DNA from: Armatimonadota bacterium
GTDB lineage: Bacteria; Armatimonadota; Zipacnadia; JAUWAU01
Assembly: GCA_030601885.1 (NCBI GenBank)
Contig: JAUWAU010000016.1
Coordinates: 66,817-130,816, forward strand
Reading direction: 5' to 3'
Length of the DNA stretch: 64,000 nt
A program made the translations under genes and the position numbers. The notes under the pieces were generated by a model. The model had not been told where the DNA came from. It ran no database searches and was given only the letters and a program-made list of their open reading frames with translations. Every line of letters starts with the position of its first letter. Position 1 is the first letter of the stretch. Shown one piece after another: positions 1,115 to 58,117 of this stretch.

Positions 1115-2245
1115 CTACCTGGGAGAGTAGTCGTAGTCGTGGCCGTCGTCGCCGCTGTCATCATCCGGGAGGGGCCCCACAGGCGGCCCACCGCCCTCGC
1201 CGTCGCCGCTCCCGTTGCACCCCCTCCAGCACCAGATCCACACCAGAATACCCGCGAGGCAGATCGCTACCCAAAAACGTCCGGCGGGATCGACGTACCG
1301 CGTCGGCGTGCCGCGTGCGTACGCGTACCAGTTCAGGCCTTGTCTGCTCGGGTCCAGCGAAACAAACCGACCGGACCCGGCGTCGTAATACCGCGCGCCC
1401 AGCAACGACAAGCCCAGATCGCCGTCCGCGTAGTAGCCGAACCCGCCCACGAACTTGCAGTGGTTCGTCGTTGAGCCGGTCGAAGTGCTGACGTTGCCCC
1501 ATGCATCGTACTTGTGGGTATCCGTGACCGTCTCCCCGGTGTTCGTTAGCGCCCGCGTGGAGCCCAGGTGGTCGAAGTGATACCAGTACAGCGTACCGCT
1601 CCGTTGCATGGCGATGAGGCCGCCCCCAGCGTTGCGGCGGTACTCAGCCGCCTCATTGCCCAATCCGTCCGTCTCAAACGCAACAGCGCCCACTCCGTAG
1701 AGGAACTTCGTGATCGTCCCGCCGAGGACCTTCTTGACACGCGTGCCATCCCCATCATACCTCATGACCGGATCGTCGCCCGTTGGGAAGTCCACGTTGA
1801 GCATCTTGTTGCGGAAGTCCCAGGTGTAGGTGGTGGTCTGCTGGTTGACCGTCTTGCTCGCCATGTTGCCGGCGTTGTCGTAGGTGTAGGTGATGTTGCC
1901 GGCGGCCGTCATCTGGTTCATGTTGTTGTACGTGTAGTTCGTATCGCTCGGCGCTACCTCATCGCGCTTCTTCGTTCGATTGCCCACGGCGTCGTAGGTG
2001 TAGCTGTAATCGTACAGGGTCTGCTGGCCGGAGTCCTCCTTCGTCTCGCGGGTCAGCCGGTATAGATCGTCATACGTGTAGTCCGTCACATCCCCGTTGT
2101 TCTCGGTCGCCGTGGTCGGATTCCCCAGCTTGTCCTGCTCGTAACTGATGCTCAGGAAGGTGGAGTTGTCGCTCTTCTTGTGCGTGATGGCCGTCAGCCA
2201 GTTGCGCGTGCTGTAAGTGTACAATGTATATGTCCCGTTTGGCAC
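1115..2245 (-). CDS. Rhs/YD-repeat protein, C-terminal fragment only (orphan Rhs tip 1)
   Basis: YD repeats are present (YTYDDLYRL, YSYTYDAVGN, YTYDNAGN, YTWDFRNK). The Rhs-associated core end is present (HFDHLGSTRALT, GARYYDAGSGRFVSLDP, NWYAYARGTPTRYVDPAGR), followed by a 53-aa tip. The ORF is only 376 aa with a GTG start, so the large N-terminal Rhs shell is missing. Confidence 0.85.
   Translation of the reverse strand: MPNGTYTLYTYSTRNWLTAITHKKSDNSTFLSISYEQDKLGNPTTATENNGDVTDYTYDDLYRLTRETKEDSGQQTLYDYSYTYDAVGNRTKKRDEVAPSDTNYTYNNMNQMTAAGNITYTYDNAGNMASKTVNQQTTTYTWDFRNKMLNVDFPTGDDPVMRYDGDGTRVKKVLGGTITKFLYGVGAVAFETDGLGNEAAEYRRNAGGGLIAMQRSGTLYWYHFDHLGSTRALTNTGETVTDTHKYDAWGNVSTSTGSTTNHCKFVGGFGYYADGDLGLSLLGARYYDAGSGRFVSLDPSRQGLNWYAYARGTPTRYVDPAGRFWVAICLAGILVWIWCWRGCNGSGDGEGGGPPVGPLPDDDSGDDGHDYDYSPR
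1799..2041. repeat. Highly similar Rhs core segment shared with 4051..4293
   Basis: Long runs of identical bases are shared with the second copy, e.g. GAGCATCTTGTTGCGGAAGTCCCAGGTGTAGGTGGTGGTCTGCTGGTT and CGTCATCTGGTTCATGTTGTTGTACGTGTAGTTCGTATCGCT. The offset between copies is 2252 bp. Confidence 0.85.
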
Positions 2246-2530
2246 GTCTAGCCGAAAGGCAGGAAACAGGGTCGAGGGAAAAGAGAGAAGGCGGCATCAA
2301 CAGGGCCGTCCCCGGCGGGGGCGATGGGCTGAGGTGAGGCATCCGGTGGGGCAGGTGCTGTGAAATGCTTGGTCGCGCCCGACCGCGGACCTCTTAGCCT
2401 GAGATGGAAAAAGCTCGTTCGGCACCCACCGGCACCCGTGCCGCCAGGGGGGCACCATAGACCGCTGCCGACGGGGAATCTCCTTTTTCCCCAGAGGCTG
2501 TCGACATGGGCAGCCCCACAACTACCTATC

Positions 2531-2550
2531 ATGAATGTCCCCGGAATTCC
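2531..2550 (-). repeat. J-repeat copy 2 (partial), reverse orientation
   Basis: Reads ATGAATGTCCCCGGAATTCC and contains the core GTCCCCGGAATTCC of the J-repeat. It lies 33 nt downstream of the stop of membrane-protein gene 2583..3176, between that gene and Rhs fragment 1. Confidence 0.6.
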
Positions 2551-2582
2551 GACTTGACCGGCGTGTCCCCCACAACCCGTCG

Positions 2583-3176
2583 TCATCCCCGAGTGACCGC
2601 CCGGTACACCGCCGCCAAGCCGGTGGCGCCCGCCAGCAGCAGAGCGACCGCGAACGCGGCCCTCGTGAAAGGAGGCCCTTGGGCGAGCGCCTGTGCCTGC
2701 CGGGCCATGACCGGTGCGACCCACGCATACGCGAGGGCGGCCGTCACGCAGAAGGCCCCCACCGCTAGCCACCATATACGCCTCGGCACGCCCGCACTGA
2801 GCTCCCGGCCCACGGGGCGGCCGCCCCGCCGGCGCTGCCCGGCCAGCGAGGCCCCCAATCCCGCGAGGGCCACCACAGCCAGAGCGCCAGGTGGGCAGTG
2901 GGGCCACCAGGCAAAAAACGCGCACCACAACCCCAGCAGAATGCCAGCCCAGCGCTGCCAGGAGTTGAGTCGGGTGATTCCCACGGCCATCGCCACACAC
3001 ACAAGCGAGAGCGTGACCGCCAGCCAGTGGGTGTGCTGATCGGCCGGGAAGGGGCCTCTGGGCTGTTGTCCGCTGAGTGCTGAAACGAGGGCTCGGGCAC
3101 ACAGTCCCACCAACACCACGGCGGCAACGACGCGGCTGAACTGCGGCAGGGCCACCCGACCCAATGGTCTCTTCAT
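2583..3176 (-). CDS. Multi-pass membrane protein of unknown family; candidate immunity partner of Rhs fragment 2
   Basis: Five or six hydrophobic segments are present (VVAAVVLVGLCARALV, WLAVTLSLVCVAMAVGI, WAGILLGLWCAFFAWW, IWWLAVGAFCVTAALAYAWV, AAFAVALLLAGATGLAAVY). An ATG at 3176 is preceded by GGGGAGG. The track ORF starts 9 nt earlier at a TTG. The gene lies about 30 nt downstream of the Rhs fragment 2 stop. Confidence 0.6.
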   Translation of the reverse strand: MKRPLGRVALPQFSRVVAAVVLVGLCARALVSALSGQQPRGPFPADQHTHWLAVTLSLVCVAMAVGITRLNSWQRWAGILLGLWCAFFAWWPHCPPGALAVVALAGLGASLAGQRRRGGRPVGRELSAGVPRRIWWLAVGAFCVTAALAYAWVAPVMARQAQALAQGPPFTRAAFAVALLLAGATGLAAVYRAVTRG

Positions 3177-3207: not shown

Positions 3208-4294
3208 CTACGCACCGTACTCCAACCAGCACACGCCATAGCATGCCGCCCAGGCTACGCTGCACGCTGCGAGGCAGCGCCCGAGCGCTTGCACCGCCAG
3301 CTGGTAACAGACGTACATGCATCCACCGCAAAGCGGGGGCGTGATGATGCATACGATGGCGCAACTCACAACGCACGCCGCCACCAGGGAACCGAAGACC
3401 ACGAGGCAGAGGGCCGCGCACCCGGCCATGCTCGCGTCGCAGTCGTCGAGGCAGCACTGCAGCGGGGTCCGGCCCTGCAAGCCCGTCGGATCCAGATGAC
3501 CGAGCGGGCTCGCCATGGCATACAGGTACAGATTGGCCCCCACGTGCAGCGGGTCCACGGAGACGAAGCGGCCTGCCTCGCGTGAGTACCACCTCCCCTG
3601 CAGCAGGAGGAGCCCAACGTCAGGGTCGGTGTAGTACCCCAGCGCTCCAACGAACTTGAAGGGGTTGGCGGTCGAGCCGCTCGAGGCAGTACCCTCGCCC
3701 CAGGCGTCGTACTTGTAGGTGTCTGTGACCGTCTCGCTCGCGTTCGTCAGGGCGCGCGTGGACCCGAGATGATCGAAGTGGTAGTAGCTCATGGTGCCGC
3801 CGCGCTTCATCGAGATGAGCTCCCCGCCCGACGAGCGCCGATATTCTCCGGTCTTCGATCCCTGCCCGTCCGTCTCGAACAGCAGCGGCTGAACCCCAAA
3901 GAGTATCCCGTCCGAGTTAGGCGGACGCACGGCGAACTCGGCCTGACCATACAGGTATCTGGTAACCGTCGCGCCCATCTTCTTGTAGACCCTCAGCCCG
4001 TCACCCTCGTACCGCATCACCGGGTCATCGCCGCTCGGGAAATCCACTTTGAGCATCTTGTTGCGGAAGTCCCAGGTGTAGGTGGTGGTCTGCTGGTTCA
4101 CCACTTTAGTCAGCATGTTGCCGGCGTCATCATACGTGTAGGTGATGTTGCCGGCAGCCGTCATCTGGTTCATGTTGTTGTACGTGTAGTTCGTATCGCT
4201 CTGCGCGACCTCATCGCGCTTCTTCGTGCGGTTGCCCACGGCGTCGTACGTGTAGCTGTAATCGTAGAGCGTCTGCTGCCCGGAGTCCTCCTTC
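3208..4294 (-). pseudogene. 5'-truncated Rhs/YD-repeat fragment (orphan Rhs tip 2)
   Basis: Rhs homology to fragment 1 begins exactly at KEDSGQQTLYDYSYTYDAVGN, immediately after J-repeat copy 3. The core end is GRWYSREAGRFVSVDP ... PLGHLDPTGL, followed by an 89-aa Cys-rich hydrophobic tip. The track ORF extension 4295..4476 reads through the repeat and overlaps the hepT gene in another frame. No credible start codon exists at the homology boundary. Confidence 0.8.
4051..4293. repeat. Highly similar Rhs core segment shared with 1799..2041
   Basis: Second copy of the segment described for 1799..2041. Confidence 0.85.
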
Positions 4295-4326
4295 GGAATT
4301 CCGGGGACACCATACTTAATTCTTGG
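4295..4326 (+). repeat. J-repeat copy 3, forward orientation
   Basis: Reads GGAATTCCGGGGACACCATACTTAATTCTTGG. It abuts the point where Rhs fragment 2 is truncated. Confidence 0.85.
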
Positions 4327-4379
4327 GTCGTGGCTTCCGCGGGCGGCGAACGCGTGGGATATTCTCTCGGACCGGGTAC

Positions 4380-4838
4380 TCACGGCTCTTCGCCCTCCAA
4401 GAAGACCTTGAGCTCTGTCTTGAGTCGCTCCAGCACGTCTTCCGAGCGAAGGACCAGGTCGGCCATTTTCGTCCACTGCAGCTCAAATGTGTAGGCATGG
4501 CGAAAGACGTGCCTGAACTGCATGTACTTGCCGAGCTGCGCACAGAGATCTCCGGATATGGCGGCTGGACGCTCAGCGAACGGCTTGGCCATCCGCAAGA
4601 GCAGATCAGCGTGCCATCGCTCTCCTGCAGGGAGTGAGGCGTCTATCTCGAGAGCTATTCGCTTGAATATGTTCTCAATGCCGGTATAGAGCGCGTGGAG
4701 AAATGCCGAAAGGGCCGACAGTTCAATGCTGTCCGGCTCCACGCTGCGCACTTTCACCAGCAGAGGCCGGTGGGTCTCAGCCAGACGTTGCAGAAGGGCG
4801 AGTTCAAGATTCACCTTCTCCCCAGTTTCAGGCCACAC
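4380..4838 (-). CDS. hepT: HEPN-domain toxin (HepT-like / nucleotidyltransferase substrate-binding family)
   Basis: 152 aa. It carries the Rx4H HEPN motif in FRHVFRHAY. It overlaps the upstream minimal nucleotidyltransferase gene by 11 nt, the classic MNT/HEPN arrangement. Confidence 0.75.
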   Translation of the reverse strand: MWPETGEKVNLELALLQRLAETHRPLLVKVRSVEPDSIELSALSAFLHALYTGIENIFKRIALEIDASLPAGERWHADLLLRMAKPFAERPAAISGDLCAQLGKYMQFRHVFRHAYTFELQWTKMADLVLRSEDVLERLKTELKVFLEGEEP

Positions 4839-19687: not shown

Positions 19688-19806
19688 AAGAATGGCCCGC
19701 CTACGCGGCTGCGGCCTTCAGTGCGCCGCTCGCGGCCCGCATCCCCGCGTAGGTCGGGCTTTCCAGCCCGACAATTCCGACGCGGACCTACGAAAGCAGG
19801 CACTAG
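19688..19806. repeat. REP-like GC-rich palindromic element (family copy A)
   Basis: Reads AATGGCCCGCCTACGCGGCTGCGGCCTTCAGTGCGCCGCTCGCGGCCCGCATCCCCGCGTAGGTCGGGCTTTCCAGCCCGACAATTCCGACGCGGACCTACGAAAGCAGGCACTAG. It has internal inverted repeats (GCCCGCCTACGCGG / CCGCGTAGGTCGGGC; GTCGGGCT / AGCCCGAC). Confidence 0.85.
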
Positions 19807-23082: not shown

Positions 23083-23276
23083 GCGAATGGCCCGCCTACG
23101 CGGCTGCGGCCTTCAGTGCGCCGCTCGCGGCCCGCATCCCCGCGTAGGTCGGGCTTCCGCCTTCGCGAGAGGGACGAAGCTTCCGCCTTCGCGGAGGACG
23201 TAGCTTCAGCGGAGTCATCGGCGGAGTCCCTTCCAGCCCGACAATTCCGACGCGGACCTACGGAAGCAGGCACTAG
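23083..23276. repeat. REP-like element (family copy B = copy A plus a 75-bp internal module)
   Basis: The first ~85 bp and last ~45 bp match 19688..19806 almost base for base. A 75-bp block, CCGCCTTCGCGAGAGGGACGAAGCTTCCGCCTTCGCGGAGGACGTAGCTTCAGCGGAGTCATCGGCGGAGTCCCT, is inserted between GTCGGGCTT and TCCAGCCCGAC. Its last bases, CTAG, supply the stop codon of the cytochrome gene. Confidence 0.85.
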
Positions 23277-32718: not shown

Positions 32719-33045
32719 GCACAAACTCCTCTCTCGCCAGAGGGCGGAATGCGGTTTCGTTCAGTCTAGGCGCACTGACAGCGCTGCTGGCTCAGGGGCG
32801 GCGCCCGCTTCCGGCCCCAGCTACTTTGTCCGCACCGCGCCGGCCCGCCATGCGCGAACGCTGTGCTCAAGGCGGCACCGACATCGTAGATGCCTGCCCA
32901 TTGTTGGCACAGGCCATTGGCCGGCCGCCTATAGGGTCTACGTTCGGCAATGAACGGGATCCCGCGTGCGCGCGTTGGGAGGAGCGAGGGCTGTGGGGTT
33001 TTGTATCAGGAAGGCTCCATCCGGCCCCCGACGATGTGCAACTCA

Positions 33046-33176
33046 GAGCCTATCCCAAAACCCCTCGACTTGTCATGCTGAGCCTGGCGAAGCATCTCGC
33101 AATAGCCTCCGGGACGAGATTCTTCGCGTTGCTCAGAATGACATTTCTTCGAGCGGCTGGTTTTAGGATAGGCTCT
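33046..33176. repeat. Nested palindromic intergenic element
   Basis: Outer arms are GAGCCTATCCCAAAACC and GGTTTTAGGATAGGCTC. Inner arms are TGTCATGCTGAGC and GCTCAGAATGACA. Each pair has one mismatch. It lies in the spacer between the precursor peptide gene and the fusion gene. Confidence 0.8.
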
Positions 33177-41625: not shown

Positions 41626-41838
41626 CTATGCGAAGGCATCCTGCGGGACCTTGTCCAGGTACGGCTCCTTCGTCTGCACCAGGTGCTCCCGCAGGCGGCG
41701 GTGCAGACGGCGCACGACCTGGCGGCACTTGCGCTCCTCGATCCGGTTGACGTTCTCGTCCGGATCATCGACCACGTGGTAGAGCTCGTTGAAGCCGTTG
41801 GACCGGTACACGTACTTCCACTCCCCCTGGCGGATCAT
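41626..41838 (-). pseudogene. Displaced 3' fragment of a sulfatase gene (paralogous to the 3' end of 45787..47346)
   Basis: The 70 codons are MIRQGEWKYVYRSNGFNELYHVVDDPDENVNRIEERKCRQVVRRLHRRLREHLVQTKEPYLDKVPQDAFA. The intact gene ends ...MIRQGEWKYVYRSNGFNELYHVVDDPDENVNLVEDRKYRAVVREMHRRLRDHLAATKEPRLDQVPQDPFA. Confidence 0.85.
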
Positions 41839-41847
41839 GGGCGCGCA
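41758..41847. repeat. 90-bp exact direct repeat (partner 45911..46000)
   Basis: ACGTTCTCGTCCGGATCATCGACCACGTGGTAGAGCTCGTTGAAGCCGTTGGACCGGTACACGTACTTCCACTCCCCCTGGCGGATCATG is identical at both positions. Confidence 0.9.
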
Positions 41848-45786: not shown

Positions 45787-47346
45787 CTACGCAAAGGGGT
45801 CTTGGGGGACCTGGTCGAGGCGGGGCTCCTTCGTGGCGGCGAGGTGGTCGCGGAGGCGCCGGTGCATCTCCCGCACCACCGCCCGGTACTTCCGGTCCTC
45901 CACCAGATTCACGTTCTCGTCCGGATCATCGACCACGTGGTAGAGCTCGTTGAAGCCGTTGGACCGGTACACGTACTTCCACTCCCCCTGGCGGATCATG
46001 CGCATGACCCACGCGCCGGTTCCGTGGGCCGTGCGCTCGCAGAAGGCAGCTCTGTCGCGATCCTCCTTCTCCCGGCCCTCGATGAGCTGCCGGAGGCTGC
46101 GGCCATCGATTCCCTCGGGAGCCGGCACGCCGGCGTAGTCCAGCAGCGTCGGCATGATGTCCACGGAGTTGGCGGGCGTGTTGATCACCGTGCCGGGTCG
46201 AATTCGGCCGGGGAGGCGCATCAGCATCGGCACGCGGCCGACGGCGTCGTAGAAAGCGGGGAGCGACTTGCCTACCGACCCGTGTGAGCCCTGCATGTCA
46301 CCGTGGTCCGCGGTGAAGAGCACGAGCGTCTTGTCCGCGAGGCCCAACTCCTCCAGGCGCTTCAATATGCGGCCGACGTTCCAGTCGATGAATGACACCT
46401 GCCCGTAGTAGCAGCGCAGGTACTCCCGGATGCCCTCCGGGCCGATGCAGTCGCCGAGCCGGCGGGCGACGCTGGTGCGGTACATCTCGGGGCAGATGTC
46501 GAGGTTGTCGGGGAGGGGCATCGCCGCCGGATCGTACATGCTGTAGTAGGGCTCGGAGGTGACCCAGAGGGCGTGCGGCGGCGACCAGGAGCAGGTGATC
46601 ATGAAGTTGCGGTCGCGGTACTTCTCCAGCAGCCCCATAGTCTGCTCGGTCATGAGGCTCTCGGGCAGGCCCTCGGGCGGGATGACGCTGCGCCCGATGA
46701 TGGAGATGTCCTGCTTCGGGCGCCGATCCAACGTCGCCCATACCTTGCGCCCCTCCACGACCGCGTCGGTCATCTCGACGGGGCGCCCCCAGGCGCGCGC
46801 TTCGCCGGGCTTCTTCGGGTAATCGGCGGCCGGGGAGTGTTTCTCCTGGAACACACCGTACCCACTGACGTAGCCTCGGCCCTCGTCATCGCCGCGGTAC
46901 GCGCGGAAGTCCGCCTTCGGCCCGAGATGCCACTTGCCTCGATGGCCGGTGGCGTATCGGCGGTCGAAGAGCATGTCCTCGGTCGTCACCCAGTCGCTCC
47001 GCGCGGCGTGCTCGCGGCCCCGGACGTTGGTGTTCTGCCCGTGCCGATGCGGGTACAGCCCGGTGACGACGGATGCGCGCGTGGGCGAGCAGAAGGGAGT
47101 GGGACAGAAGGCCTGCGTGAACCGAACACCCTCGGCGGCGAGACGGTCGAGGTTGGGTGTGTGGATAAGCTCGTTCCCGGCGCAGCCAAGCGTGCGGTGA
47201 TGCTGCTGGTCGGTCATGAGGAAGAGGATGTTGAGGCCGTCTCCCTCTGCATGAGCCGGCAGCTCCATAGCCTGCACGGCAGCGGCTCCGAGCAGTGTGC
47301 CCCCGGTGCGCGTGATGAACTCCCGGCGGGTCATGTCACGACTCAT
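45787..47346 (-). CDS. TAT-exported sulfatase (S1 family)
   Basis: The twin-arginine signal is TRREFITRTGGTLLGAAA. Family blocks are ILFLMTDQQH, the active-site CSPTRASVVTG and VLFTADHGDM. Confidence 0.9.
   Translation of the reverse strand: MSRDMTRREFITRTGGTLLGAAAVQAMELPAHAEGDGLNILFLMTDQQHHRTLGCAGNELIHTPNLDRLAAEGVRFTQAFCPTPFCSPTRASVVTGLYPHRHGQNTNVRGREHAARSDWVTTEDMLFDRRYATGHRGKWHLGPKADFRAYRGDDEGRGYVSGYGVFQEKHSPAADYPKKPGEARAWGRPVEMTDAVVEGRKVWATLDRRPKQDISIIGRSVIPPEGLPESLMTEQTMGLLEKYRDRNFMITCSWSPPHALWVTSEPYYSMYDPAAMPLPDNLDICPEMYRTSVARRLGDCIGPEGIREYLRCYYGQVSFIDWNVGRILKRLEELGLADKTLVLFTADHGDMQGSHGSVGKSLPAFYDAVGRVPMLMRLPGRIRPGTVINTPANSVDIMPTLLDYAGVPAPEGIDGRSLRQLIEGREKEDRDRAAFCERTAHGTGAWVMRMIRQGEWKYVYRSNGFNELYHVVDDPDENVNLVEDRKYRAVVREMHRRLRDHLAATKEPRLDQVPQDPFA
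45911..46000. repeat. 90-bp exact direct repeat (partner 41758..41847)
   Basis: Identical to 41758..41847. It lies inside the 3' end of the intact sulfatase gene. Confidence 0.9.
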
Positions 47347-52526: not shown

Positions 52527-52735
52527 TGGGCATCGCCTCGTTTCGTGCGTGACGCGGCGGAGGCTAGTTCCACGCGGCGGCGATGTGTCCTGCCGAGCAG
52601 GCGAGGAGCCGGGTGAGAGCGAAGTAGGGGTCCGGGGTGCACGGCTTGGCCCCTGACCCTTCGGCCCCGTGCGGGATCCCGAAGGGGGTCAGGCGCCGTG
52701 GCACACGGATTCTCGAGGAATGGAGGGCTGGGAAA

Positions 52736-53698
52736 ATGAGCAGTCTAAGATTCGTTGTGGCTGGACTACTGCTCGTCGTTTCGCTGGCGCTTCTTGGAGA
52801 CAGAGGCCTGGCGCAGCAGGCGAGGCGTCAGCCGCCGAGGCCGGCGCCGGATGTGGCCGACGTCTCTTACGGCCCGCACGCGAGCAGCGTGCTCGACCTC
52901 TGGAAGGCCAAGTCCGACGAACCGACGCCGCTGGTCGTGTTCATCCACGGCGGCGGCTTCCGGGGCGGCGACAAACGGGGAGTGCCGGCTCCGCTGCTCC
53001 AGGAGGCTCTCGCAGCAGGCATGTCGGTGGCCTCCATCAACTATCGCCTGAGCAACGTGGCCACCTTCCCGGCGCCTATGCTCGACAGCACCCGGGCCAT
53101 TCAGTTCCTGCGCTCGAGGGCCGCCGAATGGAACCTCGATCCGACGAAGATCGCCTCCACCGGCGGGTCGGCCGGGGCCGGCATCTCCATGTGGATCGCC
53201 TTCCGCGACGACATGGCAAAGCCCGACAGCGACGACCCCATCGAGCGCCAGTCCACCCGGCTCTCGTGCATCGGGCCCTACAACGGTCAGTGCTCGTACG
53301 ATCCGCGCTTCATCAGGAAGCACATCGGCGGGAGCGACATTTCGCATTCGGCGCTGCTGGCGTTCTACGGCCTTGCGCGGGAGGAGTTCGACACGCCGAA
53401 GGCCCACAAGCTGTTCGAGGCGGCATCGGCCATCAACTACCTCACCGCCGACGATCCGCCCGTGTTCATGTTCTACCCGGCGAAGGCGGCTCCGCTTCCC
53501 CTTCCCGCCGACGTGGCCGAGGGCGTATGCATCCACCATCCGCAGTTCGGCGTCGTGCTGAAGCAAGAGATGGACAAGCTGGGGATCAAGTGCGAGCTGC
53601 ACCTGGCTGAGGAGTACGGGGAGGCACGGCAGAAGCTGCAGGCGACCGCCTTCGGCCAGATGGTGAAGTTCTTCGGAGAGTGCTTTGCAGGTAAGTGA
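52736..53698 (+). CDS. Secreted alpha/beta-hydrolase esterase (HGGG / GxSxG type)
   Basis: Signal peptide MSSLRFVVAGLLLVVSLALLG. The oxyanion block is VVFIHGGGFRGGD. The nucleophile elbow is STGGSAGAG. Confidence 0.8.
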   Translation: MSSLRFVVAGLLLVVSLALLGDRGLAQQARRQPPRPAPDVADVSYGPHASSVLDLWKAKSDEPTPLVVFIHGGGFRGGDKRGVPAPLLQEALAAGMSVASINYRLSNVATFPAPMLDSTRAIQFLRSRAAEWNLDPTKIASTGGSAGAGISMWIAFRDDMAKPDSDDPIERQSTRLSCIGPYNGQCSYDPRFIRKHIGGSDISHSALLAFYGLAREEFDTPKAHKLFEAASAINYLTADDPPVFMFYPAKAAPLPLPADVAEGVCIHHPQFGVVLKQEMDKLGIKCELHLAEEYGEARQKLQATAFGQMVKFFGECFAGK

Positions 53699-53715
53699 GG
53701 GAGCGAGGCAGCTCT

Positions 53716-53835
53716 ACGCCTGCGGGAAGCCCTCCTCGCGGAGGCGGGCGCCGATGGCGCGCATCTGGGGCTCGTCTCGGGGGTCGATGGAGCCGTCGCC
53801 CCGGGGGCCGGTGTTGAGGAGCAGGTTGGCGTTGG
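53716..53835 (-). pseudogene. Displaced 3' fragment of the GH29 fucosidase gene
   Basis: It translates on the minus strand to NANLLLNTGPRGDGSIDPRDEPQMRAIGARLREEGFPQA-stop. The intact gene ends NANLLRNTGPRGDGSLDPRDEPQMRAIGARLREEGFPG-stop. Confidence 0.8.
53724..53834. repeat. 111-bp near-identical direct repeat (partner 54768..54878)
   Basis: Reads GGGAAGCCCTCCTCGCGGAGGCGGGCGCCGATGGCGCGCATCTGGGGCTCGTCTCGGGGGTCGA(T/G)GGAGCCGTCGCCCCGGGGGCCGGTGTTG(A/C)GGAGCAGGTTGGCGTTG. I can see two mismatches. Confidence 0.9.
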
Positions 53836-53843
53836 CGTGGCGG

Positions 53844-54722
53844 CTACTGGGCTGCGCGGGTGAGGGCGCCCTTCGCCGCGTGCCACACGACTACAAAGGT
53901 GACGGCATAGGCGGCCGCTGAGCACACCGTGAGCCAGAGCGCGACCGCCTCGCTGGTGCCACCCAGAGAGTTGGCGGCAATTGACGCCAGCCGGCCCACG
54001 ACGATGGGGAGGCCCACCCCCGCGATCAAGACGCTGACCACGCCGGCGACCGCCCGGCGTCGCGTCAGGACGCCGACGAGGAGTCCGAGTGTGCTCGCGG
54101 CGAGAAGCTGCGTGAGGACGCCGATGGCCCAGACCACATGCAGACCCGGATGTGCGCCTGCGGCCATCGCGAGAGGCTCCATTGAAACGGCGCAGACTAG
54201 GCGCACCACACAGAATGGCATTGCCAACGCCCCGAGTCTGCCGACCAGAAGCTGGCGAACTGACGCGCCACTGGTGAGGGCTGCTGCCAGGCGGCCCTCC
54301 CTCCGGTCAGCCACAAGCGACATCGCGGCGTGCGCAGGCAGGACGTAGCGAGCGGCAACAAGCACTAGCCATTCGGCTATTCGGATGATGACTGCGAGAA
54401 TCGCACGCCAGTGTCCCGTCCACAGAGATGCCTCATAGGCGAAGACGGCTGGTCTTGGGAGCTCCGGAGGCAGGCCAGCTTGAAGGAGCCAGAATGTCGG
54501 CCAGACGCGGCTGTCCGGGTCGATCCGGTTGATGGCCAGGAGCGTACCGTGATACGCGACATAGTCCACGAGGGCGACCGGGGGCGCTACGAACAACAGC
54601 ACGCCGATCATCCACCCGGGCCACATCCGCCGGGCCTCGAAGCAGAATACGGAGTTTCTGCCCAAGACCGGCACGCGTTCCCAGCCCAGTCTGTCTGCGC
54701 GTTGCTCACCCGTGTCCGTCAT
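53844..54722 (-). CDS. Multi-pass membrane protein of unknown family (ABC-2-permease-like topology?)
   Basis: 292 aa with about 6-7 hydrophobic segments. It sits between the fucosidase gene and the displaced fucosidase 3' fragment. Confidence 0.55.
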   Translation of the reverse strand: MTDTGEQRADRLGWERVPVLGRNSVFCFEARRMWPGWMIGVLLFVAPPVALVDYVAYHGTLLAINRIDPDSRVWPTFWLLQAGLPPELPRPAVFAYEASLWTGHWRAILAVIIRIAEWLVLVAARYVLPAHAAMSLVADRREGRLAAALTSGASVRQLLVGRLGALAMPFCVVRLVCAVSMEPLAMAAGAHPGLHVVWAIGVLTQLLAASTLGLLVGVLTRRRAVAGVVSVLIAGVGLPIVVGRLASIAANSLGGTSEAVALWLTVCSAAAYAVTFVVVWHAAKGALTRAAQ

Positions 54723-54759
54723 TCCGAACGGCCTCTATCCCCGGGAGACCTCTCGGGCC

Positions 54760-55824
54760 TCACCCCGGGAAGCCCTCCTCGCGGAGGCGGGCGCCGATGG
54801 CGCGCATCTGGGGCTCGTCTCGGGGGTCGAGGGAGCCGTCGCCCCGGGGGCCGGTGTTGCGGAGCAGGTTGGCGTTGCCCTGGCGCGCTTCGCGCAGCGA
54901 CTCCCAGACCTCGTCGGCGGTCTTGTGGTGTGTGTCCTCCGCCTCCTGGTAGCCCCATGAGACGGGCGGGCCGATCATGGTGGTGCAGACCTCGAGTGGC
55001 TTCCCGGGCTGGGCGTACACCTGGCCCTGGCGCCCCTCGTCGCCCTCCTCCGGCACGTGGTGCTCCGGCGCGAAGAAATCCTCTGTGCCCAGCCACCCCT
55101 GCTTGTAGGTGACGAGCACCTGCGGCTGCATGCCGCGGATGAAGTCGTAGAGCTCCTGGCACTTGAACTGTTCCCCGGGGCCCTTGCGCGGGACCGCGAT
55201 CCCGTCCAGCCAGATGCCGGCGATTTGGCCGTAGTTCGCGAGCAGCTCCTTGATCTGCGCCGTCATCAAGTCAACGTAGATCTGCAGATCGTGGTCATCC
55301 CCGTACGCGTACGACGGCTCCGGCGGGTCGTACTTCGGCCGCGCGCTGCCTCCCCACTCGTCGTTGTTGGGCGCGTGGGGGTGCTTCCAGTCGCGGCCGT
55401 GGGAGTAGTAGAAAAAGAGGCCGAGGCGGCGCTTGCTGCAGGCTGCCGCGAGCTCGGCGAGGAGGTCGCGCTTCGCGGGCGAGTTGGCGCTGGTGAAGTC
55501 GGTCTCCCTGCTGTCCCACAGGCAGAAGCTGTCGTGGTGCCGAGTGGTGATGTTGATGTACTTCATGCCGCAGTCCTCGGCGAACGCGGCGATGTGGTCC
55601 GCGTCGAACTTCTCGGCGGTGAACTGGTCCTTGAGCTTGGCGTACTCGGCCACGGGGATCTTCTCCCGAAGCTGCACCCACTCGTGCCGACCCAGCAGCG
55701 AATACAGGCCGTAGTGCAGGAAGAGGCCGTACTTGGCGTCCCTGAACCACTCCGTGGCCGCGGCTCTGGGGTCCTGCTGGTACTGGTCCTCGTAGCCTCT
55801 CAGATAGCTCGGAATCTCGGCCAT
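54760..55824 (-). CDS. Alpha-L-fucosidase (GH29)
   Basis: The ATG at 55824 follows GGAGGG by 7 nt. Family blocks are AKYGLFLHYGLYSLLGRHEW, KYINITTRHHDSFCLWDS and FFYYSHGRDW. Confidence 0.85.
   Translation of the reverse strand: MAEIPSYLRGYEDQYQQDPRAAATEWFRDAKYGLFLHYGLYSLLGRHEWVQLREKIPVAEYAKLKDQFTAEKFDADHIAAFAEDCGMKYINITTRHHDSFCLWDSRETDFTSANSPAKRDLLAELAAACSKRRLGLFFYYSHGRDWKHPHAPNNDEWGGSARPKYDPPEPSYAYGDDHDLQIYVDLMTAQIKELLANYGQIAGIWLDGIAVPRKGPGEQFKCQELYDFIRGMQPQVLVTYKQGWLGTEDFFAPEHHVPEEGDEGRQGQVYAQPGKPLEVCTTMIGPPVSWGYQEAEDTHHKTADEVWESLREARQGNANLLRNTGPRGDGSLDPRDEPQMRAIGARLREEGFPG
54768..54878. repeat. 111-bp near-identical direct repeat (partner 53724..53834)
   Basis: It lies in the 3' end of the intact fucosidase gene. 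See the partner entry. Confidence 0.9.
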
Positions 55825-55906
55825 GAGGTATCCCTCCGATGTATCGTTCGTCACCACGGGCCGTTCGACTTCCCGGCGAGCATCCCCTGCCGACCCCTGT
55901 TGGCTG

Positions 55907-58117
55907 TCATCCTCGCCAGAACCCGAACACCTCGACGCCCCAGATGACGCCGATTATGCTCCACATTCCGCCGATGACGAACTCCCCGATTATCAGCCCC
56001 ATGAACAGCGGCAGCAGGCGCATGTACATCTTGTAGCCGCCGTAGCGTATGATGATGACCTTGGCGAGCCAGGCGATGAACAGGCTCGAGTACGACCAGC
56101 CCATCGACCATTCGCCTGAGATGGCATAGCCCAATGGGTGCAGCGGGAGCGAGACGAAGCGCGCCCGAAGGGTCATAAGCCCCAGGGCCGTGAGCAGCCC
56201 GACGGCGATGGCGCCGCTGACGTTGTAGTCCGGCTGCTGCCCCACCTCGAGCCACGTCTGCAGCCGCGTGAAGGCCTCCCGCCCGTAGCCGTGCGTGCCC
56301 CAGCCGGTCATCTTCCCCCGCACGCCGAGCCGGTACGCGATGTGCAGGTAGGCCCAGAAGTGGCTCAGGCAGCCGGCGAGGACGGCGATCATGATGGCGA
56401 AGGCCATGCGCCGCTGGGACATGCCCGTCCGCTCGCAGAGCTTGAAGCCCTCGAGCTGGTGCGGCATCGGGTGGCTGCGGTACGCCCGGTTGAACCAGCG
56501 ATAGAAAGTGAATACCGTGAGCGCCCGGGGGCCAAAAGCCCCCGTGCCGAGCACCGTCGGGAGCATCGCGTCGGGCCCCACGTGGTGCAGGTCGTGCGTC
56601 GGCGGGCCGAGCTGGGCGCGCATGCGGGTGATGGCGACGGCGATGATGTAGTACAACACGAAAAACGTTATGCCCGCCCAGATGGGGAGGCCTATGGCGT
56701 GCGAGAAGAGCACGAGGGCGACTATCCCGCCAAGAGCCCCATAGACGGCCGCCCGCGGCCGGAGGGCCTCCTTGTCGAACTCGGCGCTTTGCGGTCCAAC
56801 GAAAGCCATGCGCAGCACGCTGCCGAAGTATGCCCGGGCGGCATACACGGCGAAGAGGCAGATGGCGATGTAGGCGCCGAGTGCCTGCTCCTTGGCGTAT
56901 GGCCAGTAGCCCCGGCCGACCGGCAGCCCCAGAGCACTGGAGATGATGGCCTCGAGCTTCCAGATGATGAAGAAGAACCAGCAGCTAAAGAGCAGGTCCA
57001 CCGGCAGTAGGTAGCCGAGACCGACGACGAAGGGGAAGACCGTCACCGGCGTTGAGCCGATGCCGCTCCACGGACGCGCCCGGACGTACTGGCGGAGGTT
57101 GAACCGCTGCGCGTTCCACGCGGGCACGGACGGGAAGAACATGTGCAGGCCGTTGAGCAGATCGTACAGCCCCGCCAGCGCAAAGCCGATCCACATCATC
57201 TTGTCCCGCAGCAGAGAGCCCTGCGGATCGGTCATGTCGTACGGGAGCAGCACAATCGGGTACGTCAGCCGCTCCTGCTCCATCCAGCGCTTGCGCACGA
57301 TCGCACTGAGACACACCATCACGCCGAGCAGCACCATGATGAAGGCGGTCCAGATTAGCGAGGGCCAGAGCCACGTGAGGAGGCGTTCGGGCCGGTAGAA
57401 TGTCGAGCCGCCCTCGAAGTACGGCTTCAGCACGTCCATGTCGCTAACGCCCAGAAAGCCCGGCATGTGCTTGTGGAACATGTCGGCCCAGTCGTTTTCA
57501 GGCGTGGCGTACCAGTAGCCGTACGGCATGATGCAGATGAGCGGCTTGAGCATGTCGATGGAGCACAGGGCGGTGACCATGCAGAGCATGGTGTAAATGA
57601 CCAGCAGCTCGGTGCGGGCAAGGGCGATGCGGGGCCAGAGGCGCCGGAGGATGTGGTTCAGGAGCGTCAGGGCCAGGAGCGTGAGAACGACGTTGAAGAA
57701 GAGCGACACGGTGCTGGCGAAGCCCCGCCCGCGCACGATCTCCATGTGGATGAGCCAGTAGCATTGAAACGGCGCAAGCGCCACGCCGATGAGGATCGAC
57801 CGCCACGTGACGCCCTCGAGAATGGCTGTGCCATTCTCACTGATTCTCTCAATCGTGCTTGGATCAGCCACCGGGTTTGCCGTCGCTGGTTCGCTCTTCG
57901 TCCCTGGCGCCAGGCGTTCGCCTCTCGAGGCGAGGGCTCCTCTTGTGCGTGCGCACAGACGGCTGGTCCGGCGCCTGCCGGTTTCCCTGACTCGTCCCTC
58001 CGAAGGCAGCGGATCATCCTGCCATGGCGTCACGTTCGCTACTACTGGAGAAATGCGGTATAATCGCATGGGCCGGAACACGTCGGTGCACGAGAGGATG
58101 TGCGAGCGATGAATCAA
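55907..58117 (-). CDS. Large multi-pass membrane protein (resembles the DUF6785/DUF6784-type proteins of PVC bacteria); start uncertain
   Basis: About 14 or more hydrophobic segments begin at GVTWRSILIGVALAPFQCYW. The first ~100 track codons are Arg/Pro-rich and probably not all coding. It lies 82 nt upstream of the GH29 gene on the same strand. Confidence 0.6.
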   Translation of the reverse strand: MIHRSHILSCTDVFRPMRLYRISPVVANVTPWQDDPLPSEGRVRETGRRRTSRLCARTRGALASRGERLAPGTKSEPATANPVADPSTIERISENGTAILEGVTWRSILIGVALAPFQCYWLIHMEIVRGRGFASTVSLFFNVVLTLLALTLLNHILRRLWPRIALARTELLVIYTMLCMVTALCSIDMLKPLICIMPYGYWYATPENDWADMFHKHMPGFLGVSDMDVLKPYFEGGSTFYRPERLLTWLWPSLIWTAFIMVLLGVMVCLSAIVRKRWMEQERLTYPIVLLPYDMTDPQGSLLRDKMMWIGFALAGLYDLLNGLHMFFPSVPAWNAQRFNLRQYVRARPWSGIGSTPVTVFPFVVGLGYLLPVDLLFSCWFFFIIWKLEAIISSALGLPVGRGYWPYAKEQALGAYIAICLFAVYAARAYFGSVLRMAFVGPQSAEFDKEALRPRAAVYGALGGIVALVLFSHAIGLPIWAGITFFVLYYIIAVAITRMRAQLGPPTHDLHHVGPDAMLPTVLGTGAFGPRALTVFTFYRWFNRAYRSHPMPHQLEGFKLCERTGMSQRRMAFAIMIAVLAGCLSHFWAYLHIAYRLGVRGKMTGWGTHGYGREAFTRLQTWLEVGQQPDYNVSGAIAVGLLTALGLMTLRARFVSLPLHPLGYAISGEWSMGWSYSSLFIAWLAKVIIIRYGGYKMYMRLLPLFMGLIIGEFVIGGMWSIIGVIWGVEVFGFWRG

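Follow-up and report, generated by a model that had tools for sequence, protein, structure and literature searches.

Why does a fucosidase gene end twice? In an uncultured member of the Armatimonadota, the 3' end of a gene for a GH29 α-L-fucosidase is present in two copies, and a gene for a membrane protein lies between them. How did this arrangement arise? We will refer to the copy of the 3' end within the working gene as R, to the displaced copy as R', and to the membrane-protein gene as the cargo. By "the window" we mean the whole stretch of DNA that was analysed (64,000 nucleotides). The features around the fucosidase are:

52637-53698, + strand: BD-FAE/alpha-beta-hydrolase esterase (Pfam BD-FAE, 4.5e-29), the convergent resident neighbour downstream
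53714-53842, - strand: repeat copy R' with its own tail (CAG GCG TAG), an orphan fucosidase 3' end
53843-54765, - strand: inserted segment of 923 nt, with sharp identity boundaries on both sides
53844-54722, - strand: cargo gene, an ORF for a membrane protein of 292 amino acids (no Pfam match)
54766-54885, - strand: repeat copy R, the 3' end of the working fucosidase gene (from a repeat search)
54760-55857, - strand: GH29 α-L-fucosidase, the intact host gene (Pfam Alpha_L_fucos, PF01120, 7e-61)
55907-58117, - strand: DUF6785/DUF6784 polytopic membrane protein (Pfam DUF6785, 2e-155; DUF6784, 4e-29)

R' and R form a direct repeat of 120 nt (53723-53842 vs. 54766-54885) with 97% identity and a spacing of 1043 nt. 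The core of the repeat (53723-53834) has two mismatches (53788/54831 and 53817/54860), and its 5' edge has two more (at 53835 and 53837). Read on the - strand, R has C at 54831 and G at 54860, where R' has A and T. These are the only two copies of the repeat in the 6.8-Mb genome (blastn, E = 7e-52), and the 923-nt insert is present just once. R ends 6 nt upstream of the fucosidase's stop codon, and the intact protein ends with ..EEGFPG. R' has no start codon and matches residues 324-364 of the fucosidase (tblastn); read in frame, it ends with ..NANLLLNTGPRGDGSIDPRDEPQMRAIGARLREEGFPQA*, with its stop codon at 53714-53716. Beyond the repeat, the tails of R and R' differ by 2-3 codons only. The insert consists of a 2-codon tail with stop (GGG TGA), a 37-nt spacer, and the 292-amino-acid gene. 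The R' repeat starts 1 nt past the stop codon of the cargo, and the high-identity core starts 9 nt past it. On the 3' side of the cargo, in - strand order, R' is followed by CAGGCGTAG and then by the esterase; 15 nt separate the stop codon of the orphan fragment from that of the convergent esterase. An earlier sequence-only reading of this DNA had reported the duplication of the fucosidase's 3' end around a 292-amino-acid gene, as well as the in-frame repeat of the C-terminus with a different stop context. Both observations hold, and its coordinates were right to within 1-2 nt.

The DUF6785 gene lies upstream on the same strand and probably forms one operon with the fucosidase, and the cargo gene is probably co-transcribed with them. 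We found no promoter-like or terminator-like site in the insert. The proportion of G or C at third codon positions (GC3) is 0.93 for the fucosidase gene and 0.77 for the cargo gene.

The cargo protein has roughly 6 helices and has no direct match in Pfam. A profile search of 1.84e9 proteins identified about 10 members of its family. Beyond the family, the profile's weak matches were to proteins from Pfam's ABC2_membrane_2/3/4 (E = 1e-7 to 1e-3). When we compared an AlphaFold2 model of the cargo protein (pLDDT 84.9, pTM 0.82) to structures in PDB, the top folds were NosY, CcmB, and the transmembrane domains of ABCG and ABCA, although these matches were weak (E = 0.06, TM 0.42-0.47). From the model and the profiles, we predict that the cargo is a very divergent protein with the ABC-2 (NosY-like) permease fold. 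Its family is tiny and is confined to this lineage. The paralogues of the cargo protein share 28-35% identity with it and are found elsewhere in tandem arrays; no ATPase partner of the ABC type is encoded beside the cargo gene or beside the family's arrays. As for a donor of the cargo, the nearest relatives are at most 35% identical, a word-index protein search returned the cargo itself only, and plasmid and phage collections contained no match.

The insert does not resemble a mobile element. It contains a single ORF, with no integrase or transposase, and there are no terminal inverted repeats at its ends. We found no significant attC-like hairpin either (z = -0.3 and -0.5). The insert does not fit an integron cassette or a transposon, as there is neither an attC-like palindrome nor a terminal inverted repeat. 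Furthermore, no Rfam family, tRNA, or dispersed repeat was found at the fucosidase site.

We conclude that the insert is a real recombination scar, but of a kind that has already been described. With moderate confidence, we propose that it is an "insertion with long target duplication" and that it arose when a circularised fragment was integrated by a single crossover of the RecA type. The term is credited to Nobusato et al. 2000 in the account given by Furuta, Abe & Kobayashi 2010 (NAR 38:2428; PMC2853133). In the reported cases, restriction-modification (RM) systems were inserted with target duplications of 46-423 bp and without any mobile-element genes, mostly in competent species (PMC2853133). 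As in those cases, a block that is free of mobility genes lies within a direct duplication of a unique target: the fucosidase repeat is unique, direct, and over 30 bp, and no feature of a mobile element is found in or beside the insert. Some of the reported repeats overlap the 3' ends of genes, as at the fucosidase, and the reported inserts deviate in composition from the host genome. Unlike the reported cases, the cargo here is a lone ABC-2-like gene instead of an RM system, and the host is an uncultured member of the Armatimonadota. (A homologue of ComEC is present in the genome.)

The single crossover has an experimental counterpart in E. coli. Amarir-Bouhram et al. 2011 (PLoS One 6:e28876; PMC3240628) studied integration with one-sided homology, and in 56 of 60 integrants, they found duplications of a gene end, of 109-950 bp, from a single crossover of a re-circularised molecule. 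There, as at the fucosidase, homology on one side leads to a gene-end duplication that flanks foreign DNA, and no site-specific recombinase is needed. However, theirs was a laboratory conjugation assay, while the circle at the fucosidase is one that we infer rather than observe. The canonical form of homology-facilitated illegitimate recombination (HFIR), which leads to an insertion with a deletion (PMC3240628), was also considered. It does not match the fucosidase locus, where the resident DNA was duplicated rather than deleted. Since the layout at the fucosidase matches additive integration by a single crossover as already described (PMC2853133, PMC3240628), the route is not specific to this genome.

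In the order and direction of events that we infer, the ancestral fucosidase would have ended with ..NLLLNTGP..EEGFPQA*, and the convergent esterase gene would have ended 15 nt away. From a putative donor, the incoming DNA would have brought some 113 nt from the 3' end of a fucosidase allele, followed by the new 2-codon tail and stop codon, the 37-nt spacer, and the complete ABC-2-like gene, and it would have recombined with the resident gene via the short homology. Most likely, this step was a single crossover of the Campbell type, in which the host's machinery for homologous recombination integrated a circularised fragment. The same product would also result if homologous exchange took place on one side only and the other end was joined illegitimately. 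As a result, the working gene would run into the incoming copy R and then into the cargo, and the resident R' would be dead and displaced by 1043 nt downstream. The two direct repeats could also recombine anew, which would delete the cargo. As the event would be reversible, some members of the population are likely to have the cargo and others to lack it.

We looked for an empty site among 40 relatives, in JGI metagenomes, and in a same-genus MAG, and found none; the best orthologues of the fucosidase in these sources have 60-73% amino-acid identity. In the sole same-genus MAG, the contig ends within the fucosidase, at residue 123, and synteny is limited to the pair of DUF6785 and the fucosidase. 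Look-ups of exact proteins (the whole fucosidase, three guessed partial products of it, and the DUF6785 protein) returned no match.

Is this layout unique to the fucosidase? The sequence-only reading had counted three occurrences of one architecture within the window, namely the fucosidase, a sulfatase/HEAT locus, and Rhs genes. The sulfatase/HEAT locus does share the layout: its repeat (41626-41842 vs. 45787-46003) ends exactly at the sulfatase's stop codon. The Rhs locus (RHS-repeat ORFs at 1115-2245 and 3208-4476) has the classical orphan-tip arrangement instead. In Rhs and CDI systems, what comes after the repeated core is a different toxic tip, together with its immunity gene. Orphan tips of rhs and cdiA form when homology within the gene adds a new 3' sequence and a downstream gene, and the old end stays downstream. 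Because the Rhs repeat is a core that is followed by different toxin tips, Rhs is related in logic but is not the same architecture. The fucosidase repeat, in contrast, comes as close as 2 codons to the stop codon, and its cargo is no toxin/immunity pair. The fucosidase locus does not fit the displacement of an orphan tip, as in Rhs or CDI: only 2-3 codons differ past the repeat, and the cargo codes for a polytopic membrane protein.

When we compared the genome to itself, we found 23 loci with a gene's 3' end, cargo, and the gene's own 3' fragment, 10 of them with repeats of at least 90% identity. The scan took local direct repeats of 50-400 nt that had an identity of 88% or higher and one copy at the stop codon of a gene. 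At least nine further genes in the genome have the fucosidase-type layout, a density of about 1.5 loci per Mb. This bears out the claim of the sequence-only reading that the route is a general one here: neither the hosts nor the cargos are related to each other, and no integrase is present. The hosts are conserved genes and include dnaE, aspS, mnmE, GH42, PIG-L, a flavodoxin, and a Gfo/Idh/MocA gene. The cargo at other loci includes PIN, IS1595, HD, and AAA_21/DUF4276 genes. At eight of the nine best loci, the downstream neighbour is convergent, as compared to a baseline of 32% for the genome (p = 6e-4). The mean GC3 is 0.77 for cargo and 0.81 for the genome (p = 1e-4), and 0.85 for hosts. The cargo looked foreign next to its neighbours, but a GC3 of 0.77 is no lower than the 23rd percentile genome-wide, and so we regard composition as weak evidence of a foreign origin.

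At seven of the other loci, R and R' have diverged mostly at synonymous positions. Across these loci, 40 codons differ between R and R', and 32 of these differences are synonymous, as compared to a neutral expectation of 25% (p = 5e-13). This implies that the two copies were alleles, both of them functional during their divergence, and so one of them arrived with the cargo. Together, conserved hosts, convergent junctions, cargo with low GC3, and copies that differ at synonymous sites only are signatures that could be used to find such events in other genomes.

At the fucosidase, however, all four of the differing codons are non-synonymous. This 0:4 pattern is compatible with neutral drift after the event (P = 0.29) but not with the allelic pattern of the other loci (P = 0.0016). 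So R and R' were probably identical when the event took place, to judge from these codons. If they were, then a duplication in situ is indistinguishable from a crossover with a near-identical donor. In a comparison of the C-termini of about 90 orthologues, the working fucosidase has R333 within a near-invariant motif, NLLLNTGP. This change, from L to R, is the only one that can be polarised, and it lies in the working copy; the R' fragment retains the consensus codons for NLLLNTGP.

So we also considered that the target was duplicated in situ, without a homologous step. In one version, foreign DNA is ligated or copied into a staggered break, and fill-in duplicates the interval between the nicks, which would be 6 nt before the stop codon and about 120 nt upstream. 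In another version, a template switch during replication copies the cargo and then the gene end a second time. The lack of synonymous differences between R and R' (0, as against 4 non-synonymous) is what is expected of copies that were identical at birth, and at two other loci, the repeats are 100% identical. Also, insertion with long target duplication has been described without a settled mechanism (PMC2853133). We nevertheless consider an in-situ origin to be unlikely. No Ku gene was found in the genome, which makes classical end-joining unlikely. The derived residue R333 sits in the working copy. And an in-situ copy could not account for the seven loci with the same layout and with diverged alleles (32 synonymous to 8 non-synonymous differences).

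Another candidate is a remnant of a site-specific element that replaces the 3' end of its target gene, as the e14 prophage does in icd, whose integrase was lost or acts in trans. As related in the account of Hill et al. 1989 that PMC13626634 gives, e14 in E. coli K-12 is an element of 15 kb that encodes its integrase and uses a defined attachment site. According to the same account, the sequence that ends the working gene is borne by the element, the original 3' end is a downstream pseudogene (icdC), and recombination of the two copies restores a chimeric gene. The order of icd, e14, and icdC is thereby equal to that of the fucosidase, the insert, and R', and the conserved housekeeping genes that are hosts at the other loci are typical targets of integrases. 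Compared to e14 as described there, however, the fucosidase insert is just 0.9 kb (923 nt, with one membrane-protein gene) and has no recombinase. Among the ~25 cargo proteins that we scanned at the best loci, there was no integrase and just one transposase (IS1595). All eight of the genome's tyrosine recombinases are away from these loci: none are on the fucosidase's contig and none are at the ten best loci. Finally, the cargo ends at 17 loci have no motif in common that could be a core, and the repeats vary from 67 to 263 nt across loci. An origin of this type is therefore quite improbable. The single crossover that we favor needs neither an integrase nor a transposase, and the fucosidase would then be a clean natural example, from an uncultured phylum, of the gain of an accessory gene without them.

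Could the arrangement be an artefact of assembly? Strain variants might have been collapsed or chained together, or a small circle might have been threaded into the chromosome. The genome is a MAG with 90 contigs and 6.2% contamination, and repeats of this kind do break or loop the assemblies of metagenomes. As an independent check, we used the Logan contigs (k=31) for run SRR14872663. One Logan contig, L048, is 100% identical to 53805-54795 of the window, which includes the insert and both junctions; another, L049, is 100% identical to 52679-53752, which includes the esterase, the fragment's tail, and 30 nt of the repeat. An assembly made independently thus contains both junctions at 100% identity, and so the insert is not an artefact of the MAG's assembly. 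(The phase of the two variants between R and R' with the two tails is as given by the MAG's assembly.) The Logan contigs end after precisely 30 nt of shared sequence, which is what a de Bruijn graph requires if both contexts exist; those for a second locus (C24) behave likewise. The junction from the cargo's stop codon to the middle of fucosidase coding sequence is an unbranched path at k=31, and a plain presence/absence polymorphism would not yield an edge in the graph from the end of the cargo to the start of R'. R and R' also differ in their sequences and their tails, and a 1-kb circle could not maintain itself. Although the Logan contig end at 53805 does hint at a third haplotype in the sample, and several small contigs in the MAG share identical ends, we regard an artefact as highly improbable. 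The small contigs with identical ends (C4, C23, C30, C43, C47, and C76) had first been read as looped-out cassettes. We dropped that reading because they are mostly tandem arrays of FlgD_ig/DUF7253 surface proteins, along with one IS.

A tandem duplication of the fucosidase, with most of the second copy later replaced by the membrane-protein gene, is scarcely credible: the genome does contain many tandem paralogues (local repeats are direct in 322 cases and inverted in 17, and two sulfatases and two URO-D genes are in tandem nearby), but two events would be required and the junction would have to fall 1 nt past the cargo's stop codon, the insert has no other fucosidase-like remnant, and the same layout is found at dnaE, aspS, and mnmE, which are single-copy essential genes where tandem duplicates are not expected.

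The duplicated gene ends might be more than mere scars. It is conceivable, if rather doubtful, that they are the working parts of a cassette system without a recombinase. In such a system, the last 70-260 nt of a conserved gene would bracket the cargo, and RecA might loop out a circle of gene end plus cargo, which we suggest only tentatively. With as much hesitation, we speculate that the circle enters another cell, where a single crossover would reinsert it at the same gene end. In this Armatimonadota population, the system would serve at least nine loci, with a preference for convergent junctions, and genes for toxin-antitoxin systems, defence, and IS elements abound among the cargo; these observations would fit. 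If this speculation is true, then the Logan contig end at 53805 marks an empty-site allele that co-exists in the sample. The orphan 3' fragments of such loci will be mis-called as pseudogenes or as small ORFs.

A gene for a 292-amino-acid membrane protein lies between a working GH29 α-L-fucosidase gene and a second copy of that gene's own 3' end. From the fucosidase side to the convergent esterase, the features are:

55907–58117, minus strand: DUF6785/DUF6784 membrane protein, first in transcription order
54760–55857, minus strand: GH29 α-L-fucosidase (Pfam, 7e-61), second in transcription order
37 nt, minus strand: spacer between the fucosidase gene and the 292-amino-acid ORF
53844–54722, minus strand: 292-amino-acid ORF (the cargo), without a Pfam match
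53723–53842, minus strand: second copy of the fucosidase 3' end (R'), beginning 1 nt past the ORF
53714–53716, minus strand: stop codon of R', separated by 15 nt from the esterase stop
52637–53698: BD-FAE esterase gene, convergent with the fucosidase side

The 3' end of the working gene (R) and R' align over 120 nt at 97% identity, with a core of 112 nt that contains two mismatches (repeat search and MAFFT). These two are the only copies that blastn detects in the entire 6.8-Mb genome (E = 7e-52). The working gene ends in ..EEGFPG* and the fragment in ..EEGFPQA*, and the insert contains no fucosidase remnants besides R'. The sequence-only reading had described this locus accurately to within 1–2 nt. 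It was also right that a sulfatase locus about 8 kb away has the same layout: the architecture there is confirmed.

The window comes from a metagenome-assembled genome (MAG) of 90 contigs, with 95% completeness and 6% contamination. To examine the junctions in an independent k=31 assembly, we retrieved Logan contigs of run SRR14872663 by exact-protein look-up, and both junctions were present at 100% identity. One contig (L048) matches 53805–54795 at 100% and includes the entire insert and both junctions; another (L049) matches 52679–53752 at 100% and covers the esterase and the tail specific to the fragment, plus 30 nt of the repeat. Three of the four ends of these contigs lie within the repeat at a distance of exactly one specific and 30 shared bases, which is where a de Bruijn graph must stop if both contexts are in the reads. 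Thus, the junction that joins the stop codon of the cargo to mid-coding sequence of the fucosidase is real DNA. Presence/absence polymorphism by itself would not yield such an edge in the graph. Logan contigs behave identically at another locus with this type of layout (C24). The phase of the two internal R/R' variants with the two tails is as given by the MAG assembly.

We also noticed that L048 stops at 53805, exactly 30 nt beyond the last junction-specific base (53835), even though its final 30-mer includes the R'-specific variant at 53817 and does not occur in the MAG's other copy of the repeat. The implication is that the sample has a third context or haplotype for that 30-mer; candidates are an empty-site allele, a polymorphic R, and the fucosidase gene of a related organism.

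We considered whether a known type of mobile element could explain the locus. The layout is like that of e14 in icd, but e14 has an integrase and an attachment core (PMC13626634), and the fucosidase locus has neither. The insert encodes no integrase or transposase, and the genome's eight tyrosine recombinases are on other contigs or far from any locus with this layout. At the junctions, we found no tRNA, Rfam family, promoter-like or terminator-like site, or significant hairpin, and no dispersed repeats (including the tyrosine-transposase repeat). Nor do the cargo ends of different loci have a motif in common. (A dispersed repeat of ~130 nt, with 88–98% identity among copies, occurs at seven or more places in the genome; one copy is in the window at 33042–33174, or C61:99858–99990.) The likeness to Rhs orphan tips, which had been proposed from the sequence, holds in its logic; however, Rhs orphan tips have divergent tips, as in the pattern of the window's RHS fragments, and the fucosidase locus does not.

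The signature instead matches insertion with long target duplication. As described in PMC2853133, these insertions have duplications of 46–423 bp, lack mobility genes, carry restriction-modification systems, and are found for the most part in competent species. In E. coli with one-sided homology, 56 of 60 integrants had a gene-end duplication of 109–950 bp, which arose when a re-circularised molecule underwent one crossover, while true homology-facilitated illegitimate recombination led to deletions (PMC3240628). The fucosidase scar is very likely a true insertion with duplication. Given the match in signature and the E. coli route, we lean towards a single crossover of the Campbell type, or a one-sided exchange equivalent to it, which would have run through the final ~113 nt of the fucosidase gene. 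The homology would stop at the stop codon because donor and recipient have the gene in common and not the downstream sequence. The genome encodes ComEC and lacks Ku, which is compatible with a single crossover but does not prove it. The scar belongs to an already-described class, and what our analysis adds is mainly the genome-wide pattern and the comparison of synonymous and non-synonymous changes.

The sequence-only reading had suggested that the layout is general in this genome, and a genome-wide scan bears this out. In a genome self-comparison at spacings of 300–10,000 nt, there are 322 local direct repeats versus 17 inverted ones. Using a simple GC3-based gene call, we found 23 pairs in which one copy spans a gene's stop codon and its partner is downstream; ten of them reach at least 90% identity. 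Nine pairs are of the mirror-image 5'-end type. The host genes are unrelated and mostly conserved: DnaE, AspS, MnmE, GH42, a GH127-like protein, PIG-L, flavodoxin, and Gfo/Idh/MocA, as well as the window's own fucosidase and sulfatase. The cargo includes PIN and DUF5615 toxins, an IS1595 transposase, an HD protein, a 1416-amino-acid SMC-like ATPase, AAA_21 with DUF4276, an ABC importer, and unknowns. The C-terminal fragments are in frame at seven loci (tblastn). Boundaries are abrupt, with the repeat ending at −21 to +34 nt from the host stop, mostly at 0–11 nt. Mean GC3 is 0.77 for cargo versus 0.81 for the genome (p = 1e-4) and 0.85 for hosts. A convergent downstream neighbor lies within −14 to 129 nt at 8 of the 9 best loci, versus a baseline of 32% (p = 6e-4); such junctions would be favored because insertion there disrupts neither an operon nor a promoter.

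For instance, the cargo behind the stop codon is the SMC-like ATPase at dnaE (C49:9181–18527), a DUF5615 PIN-like toxin and unknown genes at aspS (C35:48980–54819), and the IS1595 transposase at mnmE (C36:43822–48793). After the cargo, each has an in-frame copy of its own last 35–70 codons, and the differences between copies are almost exclusively synonymous. Separately, a perfect 72-nt intergenic direct repeat (window 19690–19761 and 23085–23156) flanks 3.4 kb with three genes, one for a TAT-signal aldo/keto reductase and two for xylose-isomerase-like TIM-barrel proteins; this, too, may be an insertion with long target duplication, through intergenic sequence. We did not retain small contigs with identical ends as evidence for the layout, as these are surface-protein arrays and one IS. 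Three whole contigs of 3–6 kb (C4, C23, and C30), with 106–140-nt ends that are 100% identical, are probably collapsed tandem arrays of FlgD_ig/DUF7253 surface-protein paralogs.

At seven other loci, R and R' differ at 40 codons in all, 32 of them synonymously, versus a neutral expectation of 25% (p = 5e-13). This excess indicates that these copies separated as alleles at a time when each was still the end of a functioning gene; one of them therefore arrived from another lineage with the cargo. The sulfatase copies have 17 synonymous and 14 non-synonymous differences. At the fucosidase locus, all four differing codons are non-synonymous (Q/H, G/A, R/L, and L/I); this is consistent with drift after the event (P = 0.29) but departs from the allelic pattern of the other loci (P = 0.0016). 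The two copies were probably identical at the time of the event, which points to either a near-identical donor or an in-situ duplication. About 90 fucosidase orthologs have the motif NLLLNTGP; the dead fragment keeps the Leu and the working gene has R333 (codon 333, at 54859–54861), so the change is in the functional copy. R333 could be mildly damaging or a population polymorphism, and the hint of a third haplotype may account for the latter.

A word-index search with the cargo protein matched only itself, and it has no match in plasmid and phage collections. A profile of the protein and three paralogs, run against 1.84 billion representatives, found a family of about 10 members, below which are weak matches (E = 1e-7 to 1e-3) to proteins that Pfam assigns to ABC2_membrane_2/3/4. 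The AlphaFold2 model is confident (pLDDT 84.9, pTM 0.82), and its best PDB matches, although weak (E 0.06, TM 0.42–0.47), all fall among type-V ABC transmembrane domains (NosY, CcmB, and ABCG/ABCA). Elsewhere, two or three members of the family stand in tandem, next to genes for an NHL-repeat protein and a Cys/Met PLP enzyme, and no ABC ATPase adjoins these arrays. The copy at the fucosidase locus is solo, ectopic, and only 28–35% identical to any of its relatives, which excludes a recent intragenomic duplication as its origin.

The starts of C31 (1–505, reverse) and C60 (1–1688) overlap within a paralog of the cargo gene; joined, they give the "home" tandem pair of the family, with the NHL-repeat and PLP-enzyme genes after it. 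This arrangement is also found in the only same-genus MAG and in the ENA contig k141_123762. In the latter, an AAA_15/AAA_21 ATPase and DUF4276 pair (1121–3030) lies directly upstream of three family genes in tandem, and such a pair is the cargo at this genome's GH42 locus.
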